Source: an uncultured Pelagibacteraceae bacterium
Lineage (GTDB): Bacteria > Pseudomonadota > Alphaproteobacteria > Pelagibacterales > AG-422-B15
Direction: 5' to 3'
Assembly (NCBI GenBank): GCA_902604225.1
Contig: CACKXV010000003.1
Location: 4,216-68,215 of the forward strand
Length of the DNA stretch: 64,000 nucleotides
Shown here: in pieces, positions 35,562 through 45,869 of the stretch
Layout of the letters: each line of letters starts with the position of its first letter
Numbering within the stretch: position 1 is the first letter of the stretch
Position numbers and translations under genes: made by a program
The notes under the pieces: model-generated
The model's input: only the letters and a program-made list of their open reading frames with translations
Told to the model about the DNA's origin: nothing
Databases searched by the model: none

Positions 35562-36254
35562 ATGAAAGTATTAATGCTAAATCCCGGAGATCACGTAGCC
35601 ATATCGTTTTGGTTAATCTCTATGGCCATGGTCGCAGCTACAGCTTTCTTCTTTCTTGAAAGAGACAGAGTAGCAGCTAAATGGAAGACGTCCCTCACAG
35701 TAGCCGGTTTGGTTACTGGTGTTGCGGCGTGGCACTATTTCTACATGAGAGGCGTATGGGTTGCTACTGGTGACTCACCAACAGTCCTTCGATACATTGA
35801 CTGGTTGATCACTGTGCCTCTACAAATTGTAGAGTTCTATGTAATTCTTGCAGCAATGACTGCTGTTGCTTCAGGCCTATTCTGGAGACTGTTAATCGCA
35901 TCTATAGTGATGTTGGTTGGTGGTTATCTAGGTGAAGTTGGAGCGATGAATGTAACTCTAGCATTCGTAATAGGAATGGCTGGATGGTTATATATCATCT
36001 ACGAAATTTTTGCAGGAGAAGCAAGCAAGGCAAGTGCTGGTAGTGGAAATGCTGCTGGTCAAGCTGCGTTCAACGCGTTGAGATTGATCGTTACAGTAGG
36101 TTGGGCGATTTATCCAATAGGTTATGCAGTAGGTTACTTTGGTGGCGGCGTAGACGCTGGTTCACTGAACTTAATCTATAACCTTGCTGACTTTGTTAAC
36201 AAAATTGCATTTGGTATGGCTATTTATGTAGCTGCAGTATCAGACAGCAATTAA
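35562..36254 (+). CDS. proteorhodopsin (DTE proton pump, Gln at the tuning site)
   Basis: WHY (His75 equivalent), RYIDWLITVPLQIVEF (D97/T101/Q105/E108 equivalents), NLADFVNK retinal Lys; 7 TM. Confidence 0.97.
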   Translation: MKVLMLNPGDHVAISFWLISMAMVAATAFFFLERDRVAAKWKTSLTVAGLVTGVAAWHYFYMRGVWVATGDSPTVLRYIDWLITVPLQIVEFYVILAAMTAVASGLFWRLLIASIVMLVGGYLGEVGAMNVTLAFVIGMAGWLYIIYEIFAGEASKASAGSGNAAGQAAFNALRLIVTVGWAIYPIGYAVGYFGGGVDAGSLNLIYNLADFVNKIAFGMAIYVAAVSDSN

Positions 36255-36505: not shown

Positions 36506-37393
36506 ATGAGAAATCTTAGAGCTTGTATTTATTTAATCTTTAGTATTTTTCTTTTAATGGGCATCTCAAATGCCTCTAATTTAGAAAATAGAGTTACTTC
36601 ATATTTTAATAACTTAGTTAACAGCTTAGGCACAAGTGTTTCATCATTATTGGGTGAAAATGGAAGGGTGAAGTACCTCGATTTAAACTTAGGTGTGCAA
36701 GAGCATTTAAAGCCAACTATATCACTTACGAATGTAAATATGATATCAGAGTATGGCAATAGCGCTATTTTTAATCAAAACTCTCTTAATCTGCATAATA
36801 ATGATCAAACAATTAATCTAGGTGTAGGACACCGAACTCTTCTAAACGATGATAAAGTTATATTTGGATTAAATATATTTTTTGATTATGCATTTGATGA
36901 CTCACATCAGAGAAATGGAGCGGGCTTAGAGGTTATAAGTAGTGTTTTTGATTTGAGATCTAATATTTATGACGCTTCATCTGGCATCGAAACAGTTTCG
37001 ACAGGTAAAGATGAAGAGGCGATGGACGGATGGGATGCACGTCTTGATTATCATTTACCGATTAAAGCAAATGCAAGACTATTTGCAGGATTATATGAAT
37101 TTGAAAATGCTGCGGGTTCATTTGAAGTAGAAGGCGAAAAATACGGTCTTAATATAATTAGTAATAGTCTAGATTTAGAGGTTGGATATATCGATGACAA
37201 CAAAACAGGTGATGGTTCATTTGCAAATCTTAGTTATGTAATACCTCTTGGTAGTAATGGTTCTTTTTCAAATAACTCCTCTAGTTATTTGGAGTACGTA
37301 TCTGTTGCTGATAGAATGTATGAACCTGTTAAAAGAGAAAATAAGATTAAAGTTGTCACAACAACATTAAATGTTAAGGCAAGCGGGTTTTAA
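36506..37393 (+). CDS. inverse autotransporter (intimin/invasin-type) beta-barrel without passenger, copy 1
   Basis: Signal peptide; TINLGVGHR, GLNIFFDY, HQRNGAGLE, NIY, EEAMDGWD strands; ends shortly after the linker-like RMYEPVKRENKI. Confidence 0.85.
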   Translation: MRNLRACIYLIFSIFLLMGISNASNLENRVTSYFNNLVNSLGTSVSSLLGENGRVKYLDLNLGVQEHLKPTISLTNVNMISEYGNSAIFNQNSLNLHNNDQTINLGVGHRTLLNDDKVIFGLNIFFDYAFDDSHQRNGAGLEVISSVFDLRSNIYDASSGIETVSTGKDEEAMDGWDARLDYHLPIKANARLFAGLYEFENAAGSFEVEGEKYGLNIISNSLDLEVGYIDDNKTGDGSFANLSYVIPLGSNGSFSNNSSSYLEYVSVADRMYEPVKRENKIKVVTTTLNVKASGF

Positions 37394-37396
37394 GTT

Positions 37397-38257
37397 ATGG
37401 CCAGATCATTTATTAAGCTTTTGTATTTAATTTTAGTTATAAACTTGTCAGCTATAAATTTTTCTTATGCCGATAGCCACGTTGATAGTTGTACAATCAC
37501 AGGGGGTATTTACGACAAGACCCAAGTAATAGACAATGGATATTGTGCTAGTGCCCCATCAACTTATGAAATAATTGCTTATGAACTGTATTTATGCACC
37601 AGTGCGCCAGCCGCTCCTACCACTACAACAGTAATGGACTTGTCCAATTGTTATAAAAATTGGGAATTAAGTTCAGGAGCTACACTTTCAGTTCAACAGA
37701 ATGCTACCGTAGATGTACCAGGTACAATGACTCGACCTCCAAATGGCACATACACGCATGGAGTTATGTTGATAGATAATTCATTTGGAATAACTGCGTC
37801 ATTACAATTCGACGAAGCGGTCACAGACCAGGATGGAAATTCGGGTGTTTATTGTGGAACAAAAAGTGGTTCTGGTACATATGGCACAGGCGCAGTTCCC
37901 ACGGGTACCTCTGAATGTGGAGCTTCAGAAATAACTGCAGGAAAATTCACCGAGCTATTAACTAGTTTTGATAGTGGGTCTTTTTCAGGAACCGCAGAAG
38001 GAGATAATTTAAATGGGACTTCAGCGAGTATTAAGGGTTATTTAATAGATACAAATTCTTATTTGGCAGAAAATGATGCAGATGTTGATAAACTCCTTGG
38101 TGCAGCTACCTTTGCATCACCGGTAAATTTTACAGAAACTACAACTACGATCACAATGTCTTTTAATGTTGGAGAAGGTATGTCAATGTATAATAATGGT
38201 TCAAATAGAATTGTTTTTGGCAGCGGTCCTTTTCAGGCAGTTATATCTACTGATTAA
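37397..38257 (+). CDS. secreted hypothetical protein, partner of barrel 1
   Basis: Sec-type signal (..FSYA), 6 Cys, T/S/G-rich; motif-level homology to 43861..44928. Confidence 0.8.
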   Translation: MARSFIKLLYLILVINLSAINFSYADSHVDSCTITGGIYDKTQVIDNGYCASAPSTYEIIAYELYLCTSAPAAPTTTTVMDLSNCYKNWELSSGATLSVQQNATVDVPGTMTRPPNGTYTHGVMLIDNSFGITASLQFDEAVTDQDGNSGVYCGTKSGSGTYGTGAVPTGTSECGASEITAGKFTELLTSFDSGSFSGTAEGDNLNGTSASIKGYLIDTNSYLAENDADVDKLLGAATFASPVNFTETTTTITMSFNVGEGMSMYNNGSNRIVFGSGPFQAVISTD

Positions 38258-39021
38258 AACTTAAATTGTTCATTTAGTATACGTTCGTCAAAAGAATGAT
38301 TCTCATCAAAGAGAAGTTCTACTACTTGATCTTTACTCTGATGTACTTCAACAGAACTGATATCTCTAAACTCAGCACTATCGGCCACAGCACTTACGGG
38401 TCTTTTGTTACTTTCAATTATCTCAAATTTCACATTTGACCCATTATTTAGTATTGCACCTTTCCATCTTCTAGGTCGGAAGGCACTTATAGGGGTCAAT
38501 GCAAGAACATCTGCATTTATTGGCAGTATTGGACCATGAGCGGATAGATTATAAGCCGTGCTTCCAGATGGAGTTGAAATTAATATACCATCACAGATAA
38601 GTTCATCTAACCTCACTTTATCATCAACTGAGATTTTGATTTTTGACGCTTGGTGTGTCTCCCTAAGTAACGAAACCTCATTAATAGCAATTGCTTCATG
38701 GATAGAGCCGTTGACACTTATTGCTTTCATTATTAAGGGAGATATTTTAATTGATTGAGATTGATTAATTCTACTTAACAAATCGATTTGATTTGAAGAG
38801 TTCATCAAAAATCCAATACTTCCGTAATTTAAACCAAAGAGAGGAAGGTTTTGAGACATGTGATTTTTTATTGCCTCAAGCATAAATCCATCGCCACCCA
38901 ATACAACGATAACATCTGCGTTATCCAATGTATTTTTTCCGTATTGGTCCTCTAAAGCCCTTTTTTGCTTGATAGCTTCATCATTACTAGATGCTAAAAA
39001 AACTGGATTATTCAAATTCAT
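38254..39021 (-). CDS. nadK: NAD kinase
   Basis: LGGDGFML, GFLMN, INEV, STPSGSTAYNLSAHGP. Confidence 0.95.
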   Translation of the reverse strand: MNLNNPVFLASSNDEAIKQKRALEDQYGKNTLDNADVIVVLGGDGFMLEAIKNHMSQNLPLFGLNYGSIGFLMNSSNQIDLLSRINQSQSIKISPLIMKAISVNGSIHEAIAINEVSLLRETHQASKIKISVDDKVRLDELICDGILISTPSGSTAYNLSAHGPILPINADVLALTPISAFRPRRWKGAILNNGSNVKFEIIESNKRPVSAVADSAEFRDISSVEVHQSKDQVVELLFDENHSFDERILNEQFKF

Positions 39022-39100
39022 GTTAATTTGCCTACTAAAAAGTAATTCTTTATCTTAAAATGCTCATTAATTGAACATCAAAATTTATTAATAAGTACAT

Positions 39101-40594
39101 ATGTCATTAAGTGGTTATATTCTATCAATAGATCAAGGGACAACTAGTTCAAGAGCTTTAATTTTGAGCGTAAATGGGGAAATACTTGCTCAAAAAAATA
39201 TTGAATTTAAACAATATTATCCAGAAAATGGTTGGGTTGAACATGATCCTCTTGAAATAATAAAAACAACAACAGACGCAATTAAGCAAGTTATAGAAGA
39301 GCTTGGAATTAATGCGCAAGATATAGTCGTAGCAGGCATTACTAATCAAAGAGAAACAATCGTCGCTTGGGATAAATTGACTGGGAAACCAGTTTATAAT
39401 GCCATTGTATGGCAGGATAGACGTACAGAAAATTATTGCAATGAGCTCAAAGAGAAAAACTTAATACAAACAATTATATCAAAAACAGGGTTAGTCATTG
39501 ATTCATATTTTTCTTCTACAAAAATAAAGTGGATTATAGAAAACGTCAAGGAAGCAAAAGAATGTCTAAATAATGGAAATTTATTAGTTGGTACAATTGA
39601 TACTTGGTTGATTTGGAATTTTACAAAAGGATCAGAGCATTCTACTGATGTAACTAATGCATCGAGAACAATGCTTTACAATATTACAGAAAATGAATGG
39701 GATGATGAATTATTGAATATATTCGCATTACCAAAGAATATTCTTCCGTATGTTAAAAACTCAGTTGATAATTTTGGAAAAATTGCTTCTGATTTTTTTG
39801 GTTACGAAATTCAAATTGGTGGAGTAGCCGGAGATCAGCAAGCTGCTTCGGTTGGTCAATCTTGCTTTAAAGAAGGTATGGTAAAATCAACGTATGGTAC
39901 AGGTTGTTTTTTACTCATGAATACAGGAAATAATATTATAAAATCGAAGTCAAACCTCCTTTCCACAATAGCTTATAACATTAATGGAAATAAGAATTAC
40001 GCTATTGAGGGGAGTATATTTAACGCTGGAACAGTTGTTCAATGGATGCGTGATGAACTTCAATTTTTTAATAAAGCATCAGAGGTTGAAAGCTTAGCCA
40101 GTATAAGCTCTAATGATATTCATTTTGTTCCAGCATTTACTGGTTTAGGAGCGCCTTATTGGAGGTCAGATATTAGAGGTCAGATTTCAGGTATCACAAG
40201 AGATACTTCAAAAGCTGATATCGCGATGGCAGCTCTCAAATCTGTTTGTTTTCAAACAAGGGATTTATTTGAGTGTCTTTTGAACGATACAAATTTTACA
40301 AGAGAGAAATTTGTAATTCGTGTTGATGGAGGAATGACAAGAAACAACATGATGATGCAATTTTTGTCTGATATTCTACAAGTTAAAATAGAAAGACCAG
40401 TGAACCAAGAGTCTACTGCAATTGGAGCTGCATATTTGGCAGGAATTTTTGCCGGCATTTACAAAGATGTTGCAGACGTTGAAAAATTATGGAAAACTGA
40501 TCGAATATTTGAGCCAAAAATTTCAATTGATCTTGCTGACCAATTTTATGATGGCTGGAAAAAAACAATAGAAAGACTAATAAGCAATGGTTGA
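39101..40594 (+). CDS. glpK: glycerol kinase
   Basis: IDQGTTSSR, ITNQRET, WQDRRT, GDQQAA, KSTYGTGCF, GLGAPYW. Confidence 0.95.
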   Translation: MSLSGYILSIDQGTTSSRALILSVNGEILAQKNIEFKQYYPENGWVEHDPLEIIKTTTDAIKQVIEELGINAQDIVVAGITNQRETIVAWDKLTGKPVYNAIVWQDRRTENYCNELKEKNLIQTIISKTGLVIDSYFSSTKIKWIIENVKEAKECLNNGNLLVGTIDTWLIWNFTKGSEHSTDVTNASRTMLYNITENEWDDELLNIFALPKNILPYVKNSVDNFGKIASDFFGYEIQIGGVAGDQQAASVGQSCFKEGMVKSTYGTGCFLLMNTGNNIIKSKSNLLSTIAYNINGNKNYAIEGSIFNAGTVVQWMRDELQFFNKASEVESLASISSNDIHFVPAFTGLGAPYWRSDIRGQISGITRDTSKADIAMAALKSVCFQTRDLFECLLNDTNFTREKFVIRVDGGMTRNNMMMQFLSDILQVKIERPVNQESTAIGAAYLAGIFAGIYKDVADVEKLWKTDRIFEPKISIDLADQFYDGWKKTIERLISNG

Positions 40595-41336
40595 CGTAAA
40601 AAATTCAGTTTCAAAGGAAGAATGGGATGTAAGAGTTGATCTTGCTGCCTTTTACAGAACAATACCTTACTTTGGTTGGGATGATTTAATATTTACCCAT
40701 ATATCTGCAAGAGTGCCTGGTACTGAAGATCATTTTTTAATAAATCCATATGGATTTTTGTTTGATGAAATTACAGCTTCAAATCTTGTAAAGGTTGATA
40801 TTAATGGCAAGATTATTAGTGAGACCAACAATCCTATTAATCCAGCTGGATTTATAATTCATAGTGCAATTCATGAAGCAAGAAGCGATGCTCATTGTAT
40901 TGTTCATTTACACTCAGATGATGGCGTCGCGGTTGCTTCTTTGAAAGATGGTCTTTTACCCTTGGCACAAACTGGAATGCTTGTGCGTAGCCAAATCGCA
41001 TATCATGATTATGAAGGTGTTGCTCTACTTGAGGATGAGAAAAAAAGACTTGTTGCTGACTTAGGTGACAAAAATTTAATGATTTTACGTAATCACGGCA
41101 CTTTAGCTGCAGGTAAAAATGTTGCAGATGCTTTTACTTATATATACTTTTTAGAAAGAGCATGCACTTATCAAGTTCGCGCAATGGCTGGCAAATTAGA
41201 ATTAAATAATCCATCACCTGAGGCAATTGAAACGACCAGACAGCAAGGTGAAGCTACCCAAGGCATGGCAGGGGCACTTTTATGGCCCGCAGTCAGAAGA
41301 AAGATGGAAAAATTAGATCCATCTTTTATGAATTAG
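40587..41336 (+). CDS. class II aldolase/adducin family protein
   Basis: THISAR, IHSAIH, HLH, LRNHG. Confidence 0.9.
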   Translation: MVDVKNSVSKEEWDVRVDLAAFYRTIPYFGWDDLIFTHISARVPGTEDHFLINPYGFLFDEITASNLVKVDINGKIISETNNPINPAGFIIHSAIHEARSDAHCIVHLHSDDGVAVASLKDGLLPLAQTGMLVRSQIAYHDYEGVALLEDEKKRLVADLGDKNLMILRNHGTLAAGKNVADAFTYIYFLERACTYQVRAMAGKLELNNPSPEAIETTRQQGEATQGMAGALLWPAVRRKMEKLDPSFMN

Positions 41337-41349
41337 AAACGAATTATAA

Positions 41350-41378
41350 TTGACCTTCACACTAATAAGAGACATAGT
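41350..41378 (+). promoter_or_regulatory. probable sigma70-like promoter of fdh
   Basis: TTGACC (41350-41355), 17 nt, CATAGT; AGGAG RBS before ATG 41427. Confidence 0.45.
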
Positions 41379-41426
41379 CACACTCGAAAAAATTGAATAT
41401 CCACGATTATTAAATAGGAGAAAGTA

Positions 41427-42626
41427 ATGAAAATTTTATGTGTTTTATATGATGACCCAAAAGGTGGGATGCCATCAAAGTATGCTTTAGGTGATATTCC
41501 AAAATTAGATAAGTATCCTGATGGAATGACACTTCCATCACCTAAAGCAATAGACTTCACACCTGGAGAATTACTAGGCTGCGTATCAGGTGAACTTGGT
41601 CTAAGAAAATTTCTTGAAGATGCTGGACATACACTTGTCGTTACATCTGATAAAGATGGCGATGGCTGTCAAGCTGACAAAGAATTGGTTGATGCAGATG
41701 TAGTTATATCTCAACCGTTCTTTCCATACTATCTAACAAGGGAAAAGATGGAGACAGCTCCAAATCTTAAAATGGCTATTACAGCAGGTATCGGATCAGA
41801 TCATGTTGATTTACAAGCCGCAATGGATCGTAAAGTTGATGTTGTAGAGGTAACTTTTTGTAACTCAAGATCAGTTGCAGAACATATTGTTATGCAAATT
41901 TTATCTTTAGTCAGAGATTACCACAATCAACATAGAATTATTAATGAAGGTGGATGGAATATTGCTGATGCTGTACAGCGCTCTTATGACCTTGAAGGTA
42001 TGCACGTAGGAACTGTAGCAGCTGGTCGTATTGGTTTAGATGCTCTAAGAAAATTAAAACATTTTGATGTTCATATGCACTACTTTGATCGACATAAACT
42101 ACCTGATGAAGTTGAAAAAGAATTAAACCTTACTTTTCATGAGTCAGTTGAGTCTATGGTAAAGGTTTGTGATGTAGTAACTATTAATTGTCCGCTACAC
42201 CCTGAAACCGAGCATATGTTTAACGATGAGTTAATAGGTAAGATGAAAAGAGGAGCATACATTGTAAACACTGCTAGAGGTAAAATTTGCGATAAAGATG
42301 CAATTGCCCGCGCACTTGAATCCGGTCAGCTCAGTGGTTATGCAGGAGATGTATGGTTTCCCCAACCAGCACCAAATGATCATGTATGGAGAACAATGCC
42401 TCATCACGGAATGACCCCACACACCTCTGGAACGTCGCTATCAGCGCAAGCAAGATATGCTGCAGGTGTAAGAGAAATCCTTGAGTGTTTCTTTGATGGA
42501 TCACCTATAAGAGATCCATATCTTATTGTTCAAAATGGCGAACTAGCTGGTATGGGAGCGCATTCCTACAGTAAAGGTACTGCAACAGGTGGCTCTGAGG
42601 AAGCGGCTAAGTACCAAAAAAAATAA
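41427..42626 (+). CDS. fdh: NAD-dependent (metal-independent) formate dehydrogenase
   Basis: ISQPF, AGIGSDHVD, NSRSVAEH, VAAGRIG, NTARG, DVWFPQPAP, TPHTSG. Confidence 0.95.
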   Translation: MKILCVLYDDPKGGMPSKYALGDIPKLDKYPDGMTLPSPKAIDFTPGELLGCVSGELGLRKFLEDAGHTLVVTSDKDGDGCQADKELVDADVVISQPFFPYYLTREKMETAPNLKMAITAGIGSDHVDLQAAMDRKVDVVEVTFCNSRSVAEHIVMQILSLVRDYHNQHRIINEGGWNIADAVQRSYDLEGMHVGTVAAGRIGLDALRKLKHFDVHMHYFDRHKLPDEVEKELNLTFHESVESMVKVCDVVTINCPLHPETEHMFNDELIGKMKRGAYIVNTARGKICDKDAIARALESGQLSGYAGDVWFPQPAPNDHVWRTMPHHGMTPHTSGTSLSAQARYAAGVREILECFFDGSPIRDPYLIVQNGELAGMGAHSYSKGTATGGSEEAAKYQKK

Positions 42627-42636
42627 TTGATTTTTC

Positions 42637-42664
42637 TATAGGACGGAAGAAATTCCGTCCTATA
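42637..42664. repeat. perfect 12-bp inverted repeat with GAAA loop
   Basis: TATAGGACGGAA-GAAA-TTCCGTCCTATA between fdh and the next gene; no U-tract follows on either strand. Confidence 0.8.
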
Positions 42665-42668
42665 TAAT

Positions 42669-43295
42669 ATGCATATGAGTAGCGTTTTCAAAAATTATTT
42701 TTCTCATTCAACCGTAATCGGCTTTATCTTGATGGCTGTATTTGGTACATTTTACATATTCAATACTGGTTTTATAAATGAGTATCTAATTTGGTTATTT
42801 ATTCCAATTTTACTTGCTCCATTTTATGAATGGTATGTTCACAAATACCAGCTACATGTTGAGCTTACAAAAAAAGATGGTTGGTATAGAAGATACCAAA
42901 TAGTTCTTCATCATGGACATCATCGAGATCCCGATAATATTAAACTTCAGTTCGCACCTTGGAGATATCTTATTTACACATACGGTCAGGTTTATTTATT
43001 TTATTCATTAATTTTTTGGAGTTTTGGTGCTGCCATGGTTCCATTTACTGGACACCTCATCTATCATCTTTGGTACGAGTGGATTCATCTAGCGCACCAT
43101 TCAAAAAACTATAAACCTTTAACCAAAATTGGTAAAAGTCTTCGTGATGCGCATATGAGTCATCACTTTCATAATGAAAACTATAATTGGGGCATTACAA
43201 ATATGATTGGCGATTATTTTTTCAAAACTCTAAAAGATAATAAATCTATTACTAAAAGTCCTACTACTAAATCAATTAACGGCTATACAGATTAA
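42669..43295 (+). CDS. fatty acid hydroxylase/sterol desaturase family protein
   Basis: His boxes EWYVHKYQLH, HHGHH, YEWIHLAHH, HMSHHF..NYNWG. Confidence 0.88.
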   Translation: MHMSSVFKNYFSHSTVIGFILMAVFGTFYIFNTGFINEYLIWLFIPILLAPFYEWYVHKYQLHVELTKKDGWYRRYQIVLHHGHHRDPDNIKLQFAPWRYLIYTYGQVYLFYSLIFWSFGAAMVPFTGHLIYHLWYEWIHLAHHSKNYKPLTKIGKSLRDAHMSHHFHNENYNWGITNMIGDYFFKTLKDNKSITKSPTTKSINGYTD

Positions 43296-43312
43296 TTTTT
43301 TTTTAATGTCAT

Positions 43313-43357
43313 CCCCACACGGACTTGAACGGCGAACCTATTGATTATAAGTCAATT
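43313..43357 (-). repeat. degenerate direct repeat of the 3' half of tRNA-Thr (att-like)
   Basis: 42/45 identity to 43713-43757, offset exactly 400 bp. Confidence 0.92.
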
Positions 43358-43401
43358 AGTAGATATACTATTAAATTATTATTAAAAATATGGAGAAATA
43401 A

Positions 43402-43674
43402 ATGTTTGTATCTTTTACCGATTGGGAATTTGACGGAAATGTTGAAAATGCCGTTGAAAATATGAAAGGTTTTTGGCCTGAGATGAAGAAGCACGGAGCA
43501 ACTAATATGCGTGCAACAGTCACGGGCGAAAAAACACTTAGAACGATGACTATTTGGAGCAGCGAAGAACAAGTGAAAGCTAATATTGATGAAATTAGAG
43601 CAGCAGCTGGTAAAGCAGTTGGCATGACCACAACAGGTGGAATGATGGGTACAGTCGCAGTTGAGCTTGACTGA
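43402..43674 (+). CDS. 90-aa hypothetical protein (possible ABM-like alpha/beta barrel)
   Basis: GGAG RBS; beta-alpha-beta-beta-alpha-beta pattern with a TIWSSEE motif; fold is inferred. Confidence 0.75.
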   Translation: MFVSFTDWEFDGNVENAVENMKGFWPEMKKHGATNMRATVTGEKTLRTMTIWSSEEQVKANIDEIRAAAGKAVGMTTTGGMMGTVAVELD

Positions 43675-43706
43675 TTAATTAATGAGAAGTATTTTTTGTA
43701 ATTAAG

Positions 43707-43782
43707 TGGTGCCCCCACACGGACTTGAACCGCGAACCTATTGATTACAAATCAATTGCTCTACCAATTGAGCTATAGGGGC
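43707..43782 (-). tRNA. tRNA-Thr (TGT)
   Basis: Reverse complement GCCCCTATAGCTCAATTGGTAGAGCAATTGATTTGTAATCAATAGGTTCGCGGTTCAAGTCCGTGTGGGGGCACCA, 76 nt. Confidence 0.97.
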
Positions 43783-43860
43783 GAAAAAACTTTCAATAAT
43801 TTACTAAACACTGAAAGTTGTAAAAAGTTATAAATTACATACAATTTTTAGTCTATAGAT

Positions 43861-44928
43861 TTAATCTGATATAGTAATCGTAACAGATGGGCGCCCTACA
43901 TCCAGTGTACAGAATTCTGTCCCAGGGCTTGTATCTTCGTCAGCAGTGTATTGTGCAAACTGTGCCCTTAGTCCGCCTGTAACATCAAATGCCATTCTAA
44001 GAGTAGGGGGTGTATCTGATGTTCTTGTATAGGGAGAAGTCAGTTTATAAATCATAACAAGACCTTCATCGGAAGACGATAAACCACCTTGCCAGATAAT
44101 TTGCCTTGTTATTTCATTGCCAGTCCCATCTTCCTGCCACACTCCAGAGTAATCATTATAATAACTATAATTTCCACATGATGAGGTTGTTGTTTTTGTA
44201 TAGCCCGCTGTATCAAGAGGAGGAACTGAAGCAAATTCTAATTCTTGAAAAGTTGTAAAATCTCCCGAGTTACAACCTGCGTTCCAGTCAGGTGTAGCTT
44301 GAGGGTTATCTTGACTATTACCTCTTGCTTCTGACCAAGATGAAGTACTAGCATTTCCAGAGTAATCGTCATTACCAGGTCCATTCAGAAAATATATAGC
44401 TTGCTCACTCGGCGTTCCTGTTGTTGAGCCAAGTGGCGCCGATGATCCGTTTGTATTGGTATTAGAACTGTTTGTTACGCATAGGCTTAAATTTCCATTA
44501 TAATTTGAATTGCTTTGCCATTGAATCGTATCTCCATTCGCATCTTTTGGTTCTACTGATCCTGTCAACCACATTGTTCTGGAAATAGTTGCCTTCATAT
44601 AATTAAAAGTTACATTTTTAGGAATACCGTCTGTACCAGCAGCAGTACAAGCTACAGCCCCTGGAGATACACCCGCTATATCGCATCTGCCATTATCTTC
44701 TGTCACATTTGGTGTAAAAGTAACATCATTTGCTCCATTGCATATTCCTGTCGAAACATCAAAAGACTCGCAGAGTTCCATAGATAGCGGTTTGACTTTG
44801 AATACGGTAGGTGTTCCATAAGCTCCATAAGTCCATGCTTGAGATACATTTGAATTTGCTATGGCATTAGTTAATGCGAATAAAAGAATTGTGACTTTTA
44901 GAAGAAATAATTTTGCAATATGAATCAT
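43861..44928 (-). CDS. secreted hypothetical protein, partner of barrel 2
   Basis: Sec-type signal (..NAIA), 8 Cys, S/T/N/G-rich; motif-level homology to 37397..38257. Confidence 0.8.
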   Translation of the reverse strand: MIHIAKLFLLKVTILLFALTNAIANSNVSQAWTYGAYGTPTVFKVKPLSMELCESFDVSTGICNGANDVTFTPNVTEDNGRCDIAGVSPGAVACTAAGTDGIPKNVTFNYMKATISRTMWLTGSVEPKDANGDTIQWQSNSNYNGNLSLCVTNSSNTNTNGSSAPLGSTTGTPSEQAIYFLNGPGNDDYSGNASTSSWSEARGNSQDNPQATPDWNAGCNSGDFTTFQELEFASVPPLDTAGYTKTTTSSCGNYSYYNDYSGVWQEDGTGNEITRQIIWQGGLSSSDEGLVMIYKLTSPYTRTSDTPPTLRMAFDVTGGLRAQFAQYTADEDTSPGTEFCTLDVGRPSVTITISD

Positions 44929-44930
44929 GT

Positions 44931-45869
44931 TTAGGTGCCTCTGGTTATTATTATTCCACCTTCGCCAGTTTTTTGGGTAATTATACTATTTGTTCTTCTC
45001 ACTTTGCCTAACATTTTATCTGACATATCGACAAGTGGAAAAATATTTTCAGAGACCGTTTCATTGAAAATGGTTGGGGTTGATTTGTCATTAGGCCACT
45101 TAAAAGTTAGCTTATAAAAATCTTCATCATTTGAACTATTATCAATATCATTTCTTCCATACTCAAAAATAATACCCTGATGCAGGTTAGCTTCAAGTGA
45201 CATTCTGTTGCCTTCTAAATCTGCTCCTTGTCTGTCCCAACTGTAACCAGTATAAACAATTTTAGCCCAAGGTAGATAAGGAGCGGTTCCCACAATTGAG
45301 TAATCATAGCCATTAACAACTTCTTCGAGAATAGTTGAAGATCCAGAAGTATAACTCACTCTTTCGGACAAACGGTCGTAAACATTTGCATAAAGTTGAA
45401 AATTATTAGCTAAATACTCAATACCAATACTTCCTCTTTGATGACCTTCATCAAATTCATAATCGTGAAAAATATTTACTCCTAAGACTGCACTATTCTT
45501 ATTTGTCAATGCTCTAAAGCCAAGTCCTGCATTTAAGACAGTTCTTTCATCGCCATTAGCAAATGGTTCCTGGTTACCTATTCGTAACTGAGTAAAATAT
45601 AAATGTTTATCATTTAGTTGATCATACGGATTTATAACAATTGGTCTCACAACAAGAGCTGAGTACTTCAAGTCATAATTATCTTGTTCCGAAATTGTTA
45701 TTTCAGTAACACCTTCACCGGGAATCAGTTCAGATATTGAGTTGCCTATGCCTGCAAGGCCTTGAGATAGTTTATCGTCAATAATTTTACTAAGTGTATC
45801 ATTAGCACTTACTGCAAAAGCAGATGATAAAAATAGGAATAGGATAGTTAACTTTCTAAATAAAGACAT
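44931..45869 (-). CDS. inverse autotransporter (intimin/invasin-type) beta-barrel without passenger, copy 2
   Basis: Signal peptide; VLNAGLGFR, GVNIFHDY, HQRGSIGIEY, ANVY, EEVVNGYD, PYLPWA; ends shortly after KMLGKVRRTNSI. Confidence 0.87.
   Translation of the reverse strand: MSLFRKLTILFLFLSSAFAVSANDTLSKIIDDKLSQGLAGIGNSISELIPGEGVTEITISEQDNYDLKYSALVVRPIVINPYDQLNDKHLYFTQLRIGNQEPFANGDERTVLNAGLGFRALTNKNSAVLGVNIFHDYEFDEGHQRGSIGIEYLANNFQLYANVYDRLSERVSYTSGSSTILEEVVNGYDYSIVGTAPYLPWAKIVYTGYSWDRQGADLEGNRMSLEANLHQGIIFEYGRNDIDNSSNDEDFYKLTFKWPNDKSTPTIFNETVSENIFPLVDMSDKMLGKVRRTNSIITQKTGEGGIIITRGT

Follow-up and report, generated by a model that had tools for sequence, protein, structure and literature searches.

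The window analysed here, a stretch of 64,000 nucleotides on contig CACKXV010000003.1 of an uncultured Pelagibacteraceae bacterium (AT-rich genome, 56% complete), carries two gene pairs, each composed of an inverse-autotransporter β-barrel gene and, directly behind it on the same strand, a gene for a putatively secreted, β-rich protein that we refer to as its partner. The barrel stop codon is separated from the partner start codon by 3 nt in pair A and by 2 nt in pair B (Table 1), and the two barrels are 29% identical over 202 residues. The signal peptides of the partners were called by inspection, and a hydrophobic N-terminal helix occupies residues 2-23 in the predicted model. No third member of the partner family was found in the window's genome beyond P0001 and P0002. 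An earlier note, made from the letters of this DNA, had described the two partners as highly diverged members of one unnamed secreted family.

Table 1. Barrel and partner genes of the window and their predicted parts
Feature	Positions	Strand	Basis and remarks
Barrel A (P0003), passenger-less inverse-autotransporter β domain	36506..37393	+	295 aa; PF11924, E 9.8e-28
Pore-linker end of barrel A, residues 275-281	37328..37348	+	aligns with the intimin and invasin linker end (4E1S/4E1T)
Barrel A tail, residues 284-295, predicted donor β strand	37355..37390	+	confident interface; G294 invariant
Left edge of partner replacement (vs. L166, L167)	37370..37400		barrel tail/partner start; DNA identity in 30-nt bins drops from 86-100% to 59-72%
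Partner A (P0001)	37397-38257	+	286 aa, 6 Cys; β-rich domain, signal-peptide-like N-terminus
Partner A residues 99-107	37691..37717	+	predicted antiparallel pairing with the barrel tail; only partly strand in the lone model
Partner A variable centre, residues 154-231	37856..38089	+	pN/pS and length variation
Later half of block 4 in partner A, residues 250-259	38144..38173	+	predicted parallel pairing with the barrel tail
Partner B (P0002)	43861-44928	-	355 aa, 8 Cys; scaffold as in partner A, signal-peptide-like N-terminus
Partner B long variable centre, residues 151-288	44065..44478	-	length variation; dN/dS 0.08-0.20, three close alleles
Barrel B (P0004), passenger-less inverse-autotransporter β domain	44931..45869	-	312 aa; PF11924, E 9.7e-27
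Barrel B tail, residues 301-312, probable donor strand	44934..44969	-	match of type B tails to DUF4382 strand 1; homology to pair A

Coupling of barrel and partner genes

The barrel family profile matches the barrels of intimin (4E1S) and invasin (4E1T) with E-values of 2e-21 and 4e-18. Barrel and linker are homologous to those of the inverse autotransporters (type Ve; intimin 4E1S, invasin 4E1T, PF11924), and the linker-end motif is kept; in barrel A its residues R277, N279 and I281 are invariant in 47 rows. Unlike those proteins, the window barrels have no covalent passenger: across 115 barrels of the family, the chain ends only 13-20 residues past the linker motif, L240 being an exception. 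The terminal residues, here called the tail, occur in two types, of which type A ends with G-F/Y and type B has the form G-x-x-x-I-x-R. The tail type changes once on the barrel tree, calculated with the tails excluded, and once on the partner tree (65 pairs), so that a cross pair of types A and B is unseen.

A same-strand open reading frame (ORF) lies directly behind the barrel for 112 of 116 non-redundant barrel ORFs, these downstream ORFs being taken as family members by sequence inspection and by joint-profile matches in the genomes. Conversely, among loci found via the partner, a barrel stands directly upstream of 82 of the 86 partner ORFs, and the four misses are at locus or contig edges. 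Both genes are present in 76 of the 251 Pelagibacterales genomes searched (about 30%), the barrel alone in one, at a contig end, and the partner alone in three (two 63-codon remnants and one contig edge). Since the partner profile was built from barrel neighbours, the informative part of this distribution is the near absence of the partner where no barrel was found. In a set of 301 Alphaproteobacteria, the barrel family was detected in 31 genomes, mostly in long frames, and the partner in four besides the window's genome, each time behind a short barrel; two further short barrels have no partner. The type A pair also occurs in nine marine γ-proteobacterial records. These gene orders and counts indicate that the barrel and partner genes are tightly coupled. 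A fused barrel-partner protein was absent from 7993 scored candidates of 624-2000 residues, a range outside the 530-620 residues expected for a plain fusion, and two viral-contig scans using limited patterns found no pair in phage. Four seawater RNA runs yielded contigs that cover barrel A and partner A, one of them extending over the junction, although such contigs cannot show transcription or its level; promoter-like sites were in no excess over shuffled sequences (41 vs. 41.8).

Several loci depart from the simple arrangement. The exceptional locus L240:309-3673 (genome G028) encodes a 510-aa barrel in which two Big_12 domains separate the linker from a terminal strand that is still present; two partner genes in tandem come next. 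In genome G071 (L236:2239-13217; also L062 and L056), three barrels are accompanied by six partner genes, and two of these partner genes have no barrel directly upstream. All six G071 partners end with an extra basic tail of the R-R-R-G-A-W-R or R-G-S-W-R type, which may be a sorting or anchoring signal; a similar end is found in G207. In the one-contig genome G042, an in-frame chimera (L021:1141-1953) joins the front part of a barrel to the back part of a type B partner and is probably a deletion product. Broken or remnant copies lie at L012, L237, L238 and L239: both genes are interrupted in G001, short partner remnants lacking a barrel occur in G177 and G258, and in G263 a truncated barrel faces an inverted piece of a partner, possibly as an assembly chimera.

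Homology and diversification of the partners

Compared directly by BLASTP, P0001 and P0002 are not significantly similar (best E-value of 4.4). Mature-only family profiles of 25 and 31 rows, built from barrel loci of relatives, match each other at 96.7% in hhalign (E-value of 3.9e-10, 200 columns), compared with no more than 7.2% in any of 30 controls made by reversal or block shuffling, and shallower profiles that include the signal peptides gave 82% (E-value of 1e-5). The type B profile also recovers P0001, which is among the 25 type A rows, with an E-value of 3.9e-10, whereas the type A profile misses P0002 (E-value of 0.54). Between the two types, short type B members (about 230-290 aa) form a bridge. 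It is extremely improbable that P0001 and P0002 are unrelated secreted β proteins with blocks alike by chance: such a coincidence would agree with the BLASTP result and with the missed retrieval of P0002, but not with the profile match so far above its controls, the recovery of P0001, or the same genomic partner and strand order of the two proteins. Judged from the profiles, the two partners are homologous and are distant members of one unnamed family.

The description of a single secreted family with a β-rich scaffold and a length-variable centre is thus upheld. All 12 motifs quoted for it are present in the order given, hhalign pairs blocks 1, 2 and 3 and both halves of block 4 in the register proposed earlier, and the even cysteine counts (6 and 8) are correct. 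The C-terminal strands, also considered shared, are aligned in a joint MAFFT alignment but lie outside the local hhalign alignment. A joint profile collects 1358 clusters at 50% identity, and the best 150 of the 1358 library matches are all 155-399 residues long. Neither P0001 nor P0002 has a Pfam match, and scans of Pfam, NCBIfam and PHROGs with 23, 38 and 50 rows revealed no family common to more than two members. AlphaFold2 models of both partners are confident and mostly β (predicted local distance difference test, pLDDT, of 87.1 and 87.4), and the strand order matches between the two lone models. A sequence search found no solved relative of the partner (best E-value of 0.93), Foldseek gave no solved-structure match for the partner models at an E-value of 0.001, and the best Z-scores in a VIA fold search (3.5 and 3.4) are at background level. 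For the models, such background-level matches indicate neither a new nor a different fold.

The scaffold had been thought to be stabilized by conserved disulfides, and this view was not borne out, as only the pair in the first hairpin is common to both types. The cysteine pairs, assigned from co-occurrence rather than coordinates, are 32-50, 67-85 and 153-174 in partner A and 53-63, 82-94, 150-340 and 219-251 in partner B. The cysteines of pairs 82-94 and 219-251 are gained or lost together in 62 of 62 type B rows, as are those of pair 153-174 in 47 of 47 type A rows. Probably one disulfide alone is common to the two types. The extra length of partner B had been ascribed to a central region rich in S, T, N and G. 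Its position is right, as 60 of the 69 additional residues lie between blocks 3 and 4 (a distance of 84 residues in partner A vs. 144 in partner B), but the composition is not peculiar to the longer protein: the S/T/N/G fraction between blocks 3 and 4 exceeds that of the rest in both (0.50 vs. 0.39 and 0.49 vs. 0.37). The length of the central region ranges from 78 to 121 residues in 47 type A rows and from 61 to 142 in 62 type B rows.

The diversifying selection that the earlier note expected of the centre was not found. When 12 close type A alleles were compared with the window, the ratio of nonsynonymous to synonymous polymorphism (pN/pS) came to 0.10 for the centre and 0.04 for the remainder of the partner. 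The nonsynonymous divergence (dN) is lower in the partner than in its barrel in all 11 type A alleles that have both genes, and the ratio of nonsynonymous to synonymous divergence (dN/dS) of the type B centre is 0.08-0.20 for three close alleles; all of these comparisons have one reference in common and are not independent. These ratios indicate that the centre is under relaxed purifying selection. Positive selection in the centre was rejected at the level of regions.

Partner diversity has a different source. At the locus between proteorhodopsin and NAD kinase, the partner occurs in discrete classes of about 95, 70 and 52% identity. Compared with the window, the relatives L166 and L167 have 88-97% identity in the barrel DNA and 63-77% in the partner. 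Among 604 same-type pairs with barrels more than 60% identical, 49 combine a barrel identity above 88% with a partner identity below 75%, and none has the reverse pattern; the pairs are not independent. Within a type, the partner is therefore exchanged as a whole-gene cassette while the barrel in front of it stays nearly the same, and it is from this exchange that the diversity arises.

Predicted docking of the barrel tail and the DUF4382 resemblance

The idea that the barrel tail donates a strand to the partner, the central element here and one absent from the earlier description of the two proteins, was framed before complex prediction was run. Barrel A with partner A received a score of 0.79, compared with 0.01 for the best of three controls. 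In a calibration, the same mark was attained by 116 of 157 complexes of solved structure and by 2 of 215 mismatched pairs, which is only a rough guide for alignments of our own. At least 89% of the contacts agree among the docking runs, the pLDDT of the partner is at least 89, and all but one of the confident interface residues of the barrel fall within tail residues 284-295. The predicted tail runs parallel to partner strand 250-256 and antiparallel to residues 104-107, over core residues that include Y57; M254 and F256 of the partner are nearly invariant. The stretch 100-116 is mostly not a strand in the lone partner A model. Neither sequence nor fold search found a solved relative of the partner that the docking model could recall. 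These predictions make it quite likely that the tail of barrel A docks as a β strand in partner A, and homology to pair A suggests the same for type B tails. A strand so placed is strand A of a transthyretin-type sandwich. The partner fold is assigned to this type provisionally, from contacts and strand order rather than coordinates.

The scaffold had also been called loosely reminiscent of DUF4382 (PF14321). Membership at the Pfam level was not found, as none of 50 members matched at an E-value of 0.1, with no match for P0001 or P0002 and none in G000. A remote resemblance, weak but above controls, is seen with the short type B members. With a DUF4382 alignment of 30 rows, short type B partners match locally with a score of 31.0 (E-value of 4e-4, probability of 34%; at most 22.1 in 40 shuffles) and globally with a score of 23.6 (at most 6.4 in shuffles); a 7-row comparison was not significant. 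The local match is collinear and starts just past the first strand of DUF4382, and the N-terminal strand, which ends in a TDAP-type motif, is not in the partner chain. When 31 type B tails were slid along DUF4382, its first strand ranked first of 163 windows. The Atlas gives 0.90 for P0002 with a DUF4382-bearing cluster, at low recognition and with DUF4382 in 31% of the cluster members. The short type B partners share weak profile similarity with DUF4382 from strand 2 onward; unlike it, the partners have no strand 1 and have added disulfides and a large centre, and they are without the lipobox-like N-terminus seen in most of the seven DUF4382 examples compared. A partner similarity that omits strand 1, together with type B tails that resemble strand 1, suggests a DUF4382-like domain split between the barrel and partner genes.

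Proposed surface display and alternative explanations

We propose that each partner would be a separately encoded companion of the passenger-less barrel upstream. Both chains would be exported by Sec, and the partner would become disulfide-bonded in the periplasm, where the barrel tail would capture it. The last 12 residues of the barrel would supply the missing first β strand of the partner fold and hold the partner, whose domain would be a remote DUF4382-like, transthyretin-type sandwich cut after strand 1. Hairpin translocation assisted by the β-barrel assembly machinery (BAM) would carry tail and partner outward, and the partner would be displayed on the cell surface as an exchangeable tip, with its variable centre facing outward and either binding a ligand or altering what phages and grazers recognize. 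We consider this display model, in which a tail-held partner is an exchangeable surface tip, reasonably probable as a whole. It can further be speculated that these are split-domain type Ve systems widespread in the sea, in which the barrel keeps one strand as a fixed socket, the rest of the DUF4382-like domain is freely exchanged, and barrel and BAM use that strand to pull out a disulfide-folded protein bound non-covalently, giving SAR11 and other oligotrophs a swappable tip in more than 1000 clusters; this extension is tentative, and we would sooner doubt it than adopt it.

The outside location has two indications, the conserved linker-end residues of the barrels, after which the tail follows, and the Ig-like domains that precede the L240 tail. 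In intimin, this part of the linker is described as forming a sheet at the extracellular opening (PMC13078405). BamA and DsbB are present in three same-genus genomes that carry the pair (G061, G023 and G036; 94-100% complete). Secretin and T2SS-F/PilC have no match in these three genomes and are present in G071, and both type IV pili and type II secretion may be absent from the genus of the window. Should the partner lie outside, barrel and BAM would be the likeliest route; otherwise it would be periplasmic.

Several points weigh against this display model. The docking comes from one model, of the type A pair, whose controls did not include a cross-type pair, and split domains tend to pass such complex tests. 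The fold searches reached Z-scores of at most 3.5, so the transthyretin-type assignment draws on contacts and strand order. The DUF4382 match is weak (34%) and is seen only with short type B members, whereas type A profiles and profiles centred on the window proteins give no significant match. Type A tails rank the first DUF4382 strand only fourth of 163, and the glycine used to anchor the tail window was chosen afterwards. A single change of tail type per tree is also what linked inheritance by itself would produce. The surface location of the partner is plausible by inference. Finally, a completed barrel of 12 strands cannot let through a folded protein of 230-400 residues that carries 2-4 disulfides, so that export of the folded partner would need an unproven BAM-hybrid route.

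This last difficulty would vanish if the tail docked but stayed inside, with the partner acting beneath the barrel as a periplasmic cap, plug or sensor. No disulfide-bonded domain would then have to be translocated, the missing secretin and T2SS-F matches in all three near-complete same-genus genomes would be accommodated, and the complex score is silent on the side of the membrane. Nevertheless, the conserved linker-end residues, located at the extracellular opening in intimin, and the Ig-like stalk domains of L240 point the other way, and gene replacement at a fixed locus would be more typical of exposed structures; we consider the periplasmic arrangement unlikely, if still worth keeping in mind. 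The tail might otherwise be a transient handle, with the partner released to the medium as in the ZirT/ZirS system, where ZirS is reported to reach the medium in a ZirT-dependent manner (PMC2270342). Partners do outnumber barrels in some genomes (six vs. three in G071, two behind one barrel in L240), but most loci are 1:1, a strand predicted to lie in the hydrophobic core suggests a lasting bond by comparison with donor-strand systems, and release of protein would be costly for a streamlined oligotroph, all of which makes secretion of this kind quite unlikely.

It is very unlikely that the partner is a pilin, with the tail anchoring the first subunit and C-terminal strands donated from subunit to subunit as in type V pili. 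The partners end with a β strand, multi-partner loci exist, and fold searches weakly match type V pilin domains of Bacteroides (Z-scores of 3.3-3.4, root-mean-square deviation of 3.6-4.1 Å, 99 aligned residues). However, these Z-scores are within the background, the last strand sits inside the fold in the lone models, a loose lipobox pattern was found in just 2 of 110 partners, and the partner has one domain rather than two. Type V pili of Bacteroidia (FimA, Mfa1) are, by analogy, the nearest mechanistic counterpart of the predicted docking: their C-terminal donor strands are described as filling a groove in the transthyretin-like sandwich of another chain (PMC13655056). They differ from the display model, in which the donor would be the barrel tail and which has no lipid anchor, protease trigger or two-domain pilin and no evidence of a polymer.

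The arrangement itself has precedents. ZirT secretes the co-encoded ZirS (PMC2270342), and Heinz et al. (PMC4943183) list further inverse autotransporters with co-encoded Ig-like substrates, as well as 'invasin_beta-only' proteins. Salmonella ZirT/ZirS(/ZirU), the proposed SinH/SinI, Yfr4 and Ahy1 are likewise described as an intimin-type barrel followed by a co-encoded signal-peptide protein that has no barrel (PMC2270342; PMC4943183; PMC3008723). In ZirT/ZirS-type systems, as reported there, the downstream proteins resemble Ig-like domains of their own barrel protein and ZirS is released. The window pairs differ by a barrel tail of only 13-20 residues, a different, unnamed partner family and a link predicted to be strand complementation; no Ig-like domains were found on the window barrels, and the partners have no Big-family Pfam match (the nearest being a PKD-like hit with an E-value of 0.04 in 1 of 50). 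Tsai et al. 2010 (PMC3008723) call the function of passenger-less barrels 'completely unknown' and guess at non-covalent passengers, and in the available part of that paper neither this partner family nor a mechanism is named. A literature search that included PMC11796062, few subscription papers and no supplements returned nothing on the partner family or on tail complementation. As modelled, the pair would extend the two-partner type Ve systems by an unnamed partner family and a predicted strand-complementation tether.

These pairs provide passenger-less intimin-type barrels with a specific partner that can be put to the test, and with a model of how the two dock, residue by residue. If the tail does carry the partner out, type Ve secretion could move a separate folded chain, which would bear on BAM-assisted translocation and suggest a modular tag for surface display. 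Its frequency, and the swapping of the partner gene among close relatives, make the pair a candidate for a surface identity that differs from strain to strain in the most abundant bacteria of the ocean.

Directly upstream of pair A is a proteorhodopsin gene (35562-36254) with Gln at the tuning position, which we take to be of the blue type; its similarity to the genes of relatives is uneven, with 90% identity in L155 and 95-100% in the others, a hint that recombination has occurred there as well. The region between the two pairs (39101-43674) contains a gene that by inspection is glycerol-kinase-like, a class II aldolase gene, genes of the 2-hydroxyacid-dehydrogenase and fatty-acid-hydroxylase families and a gene for a 90-aa protein of unknown type. 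In the window and in L002 and L003, the type B pair lies beside a SpoU-family methylase gene, whereas in most same-genus genomes (L004-L013) it is flanked by a type I secretion gene of the HlyD family and by an adenylylsulfate-kinase-like gene; the pair has therefore changed its place.

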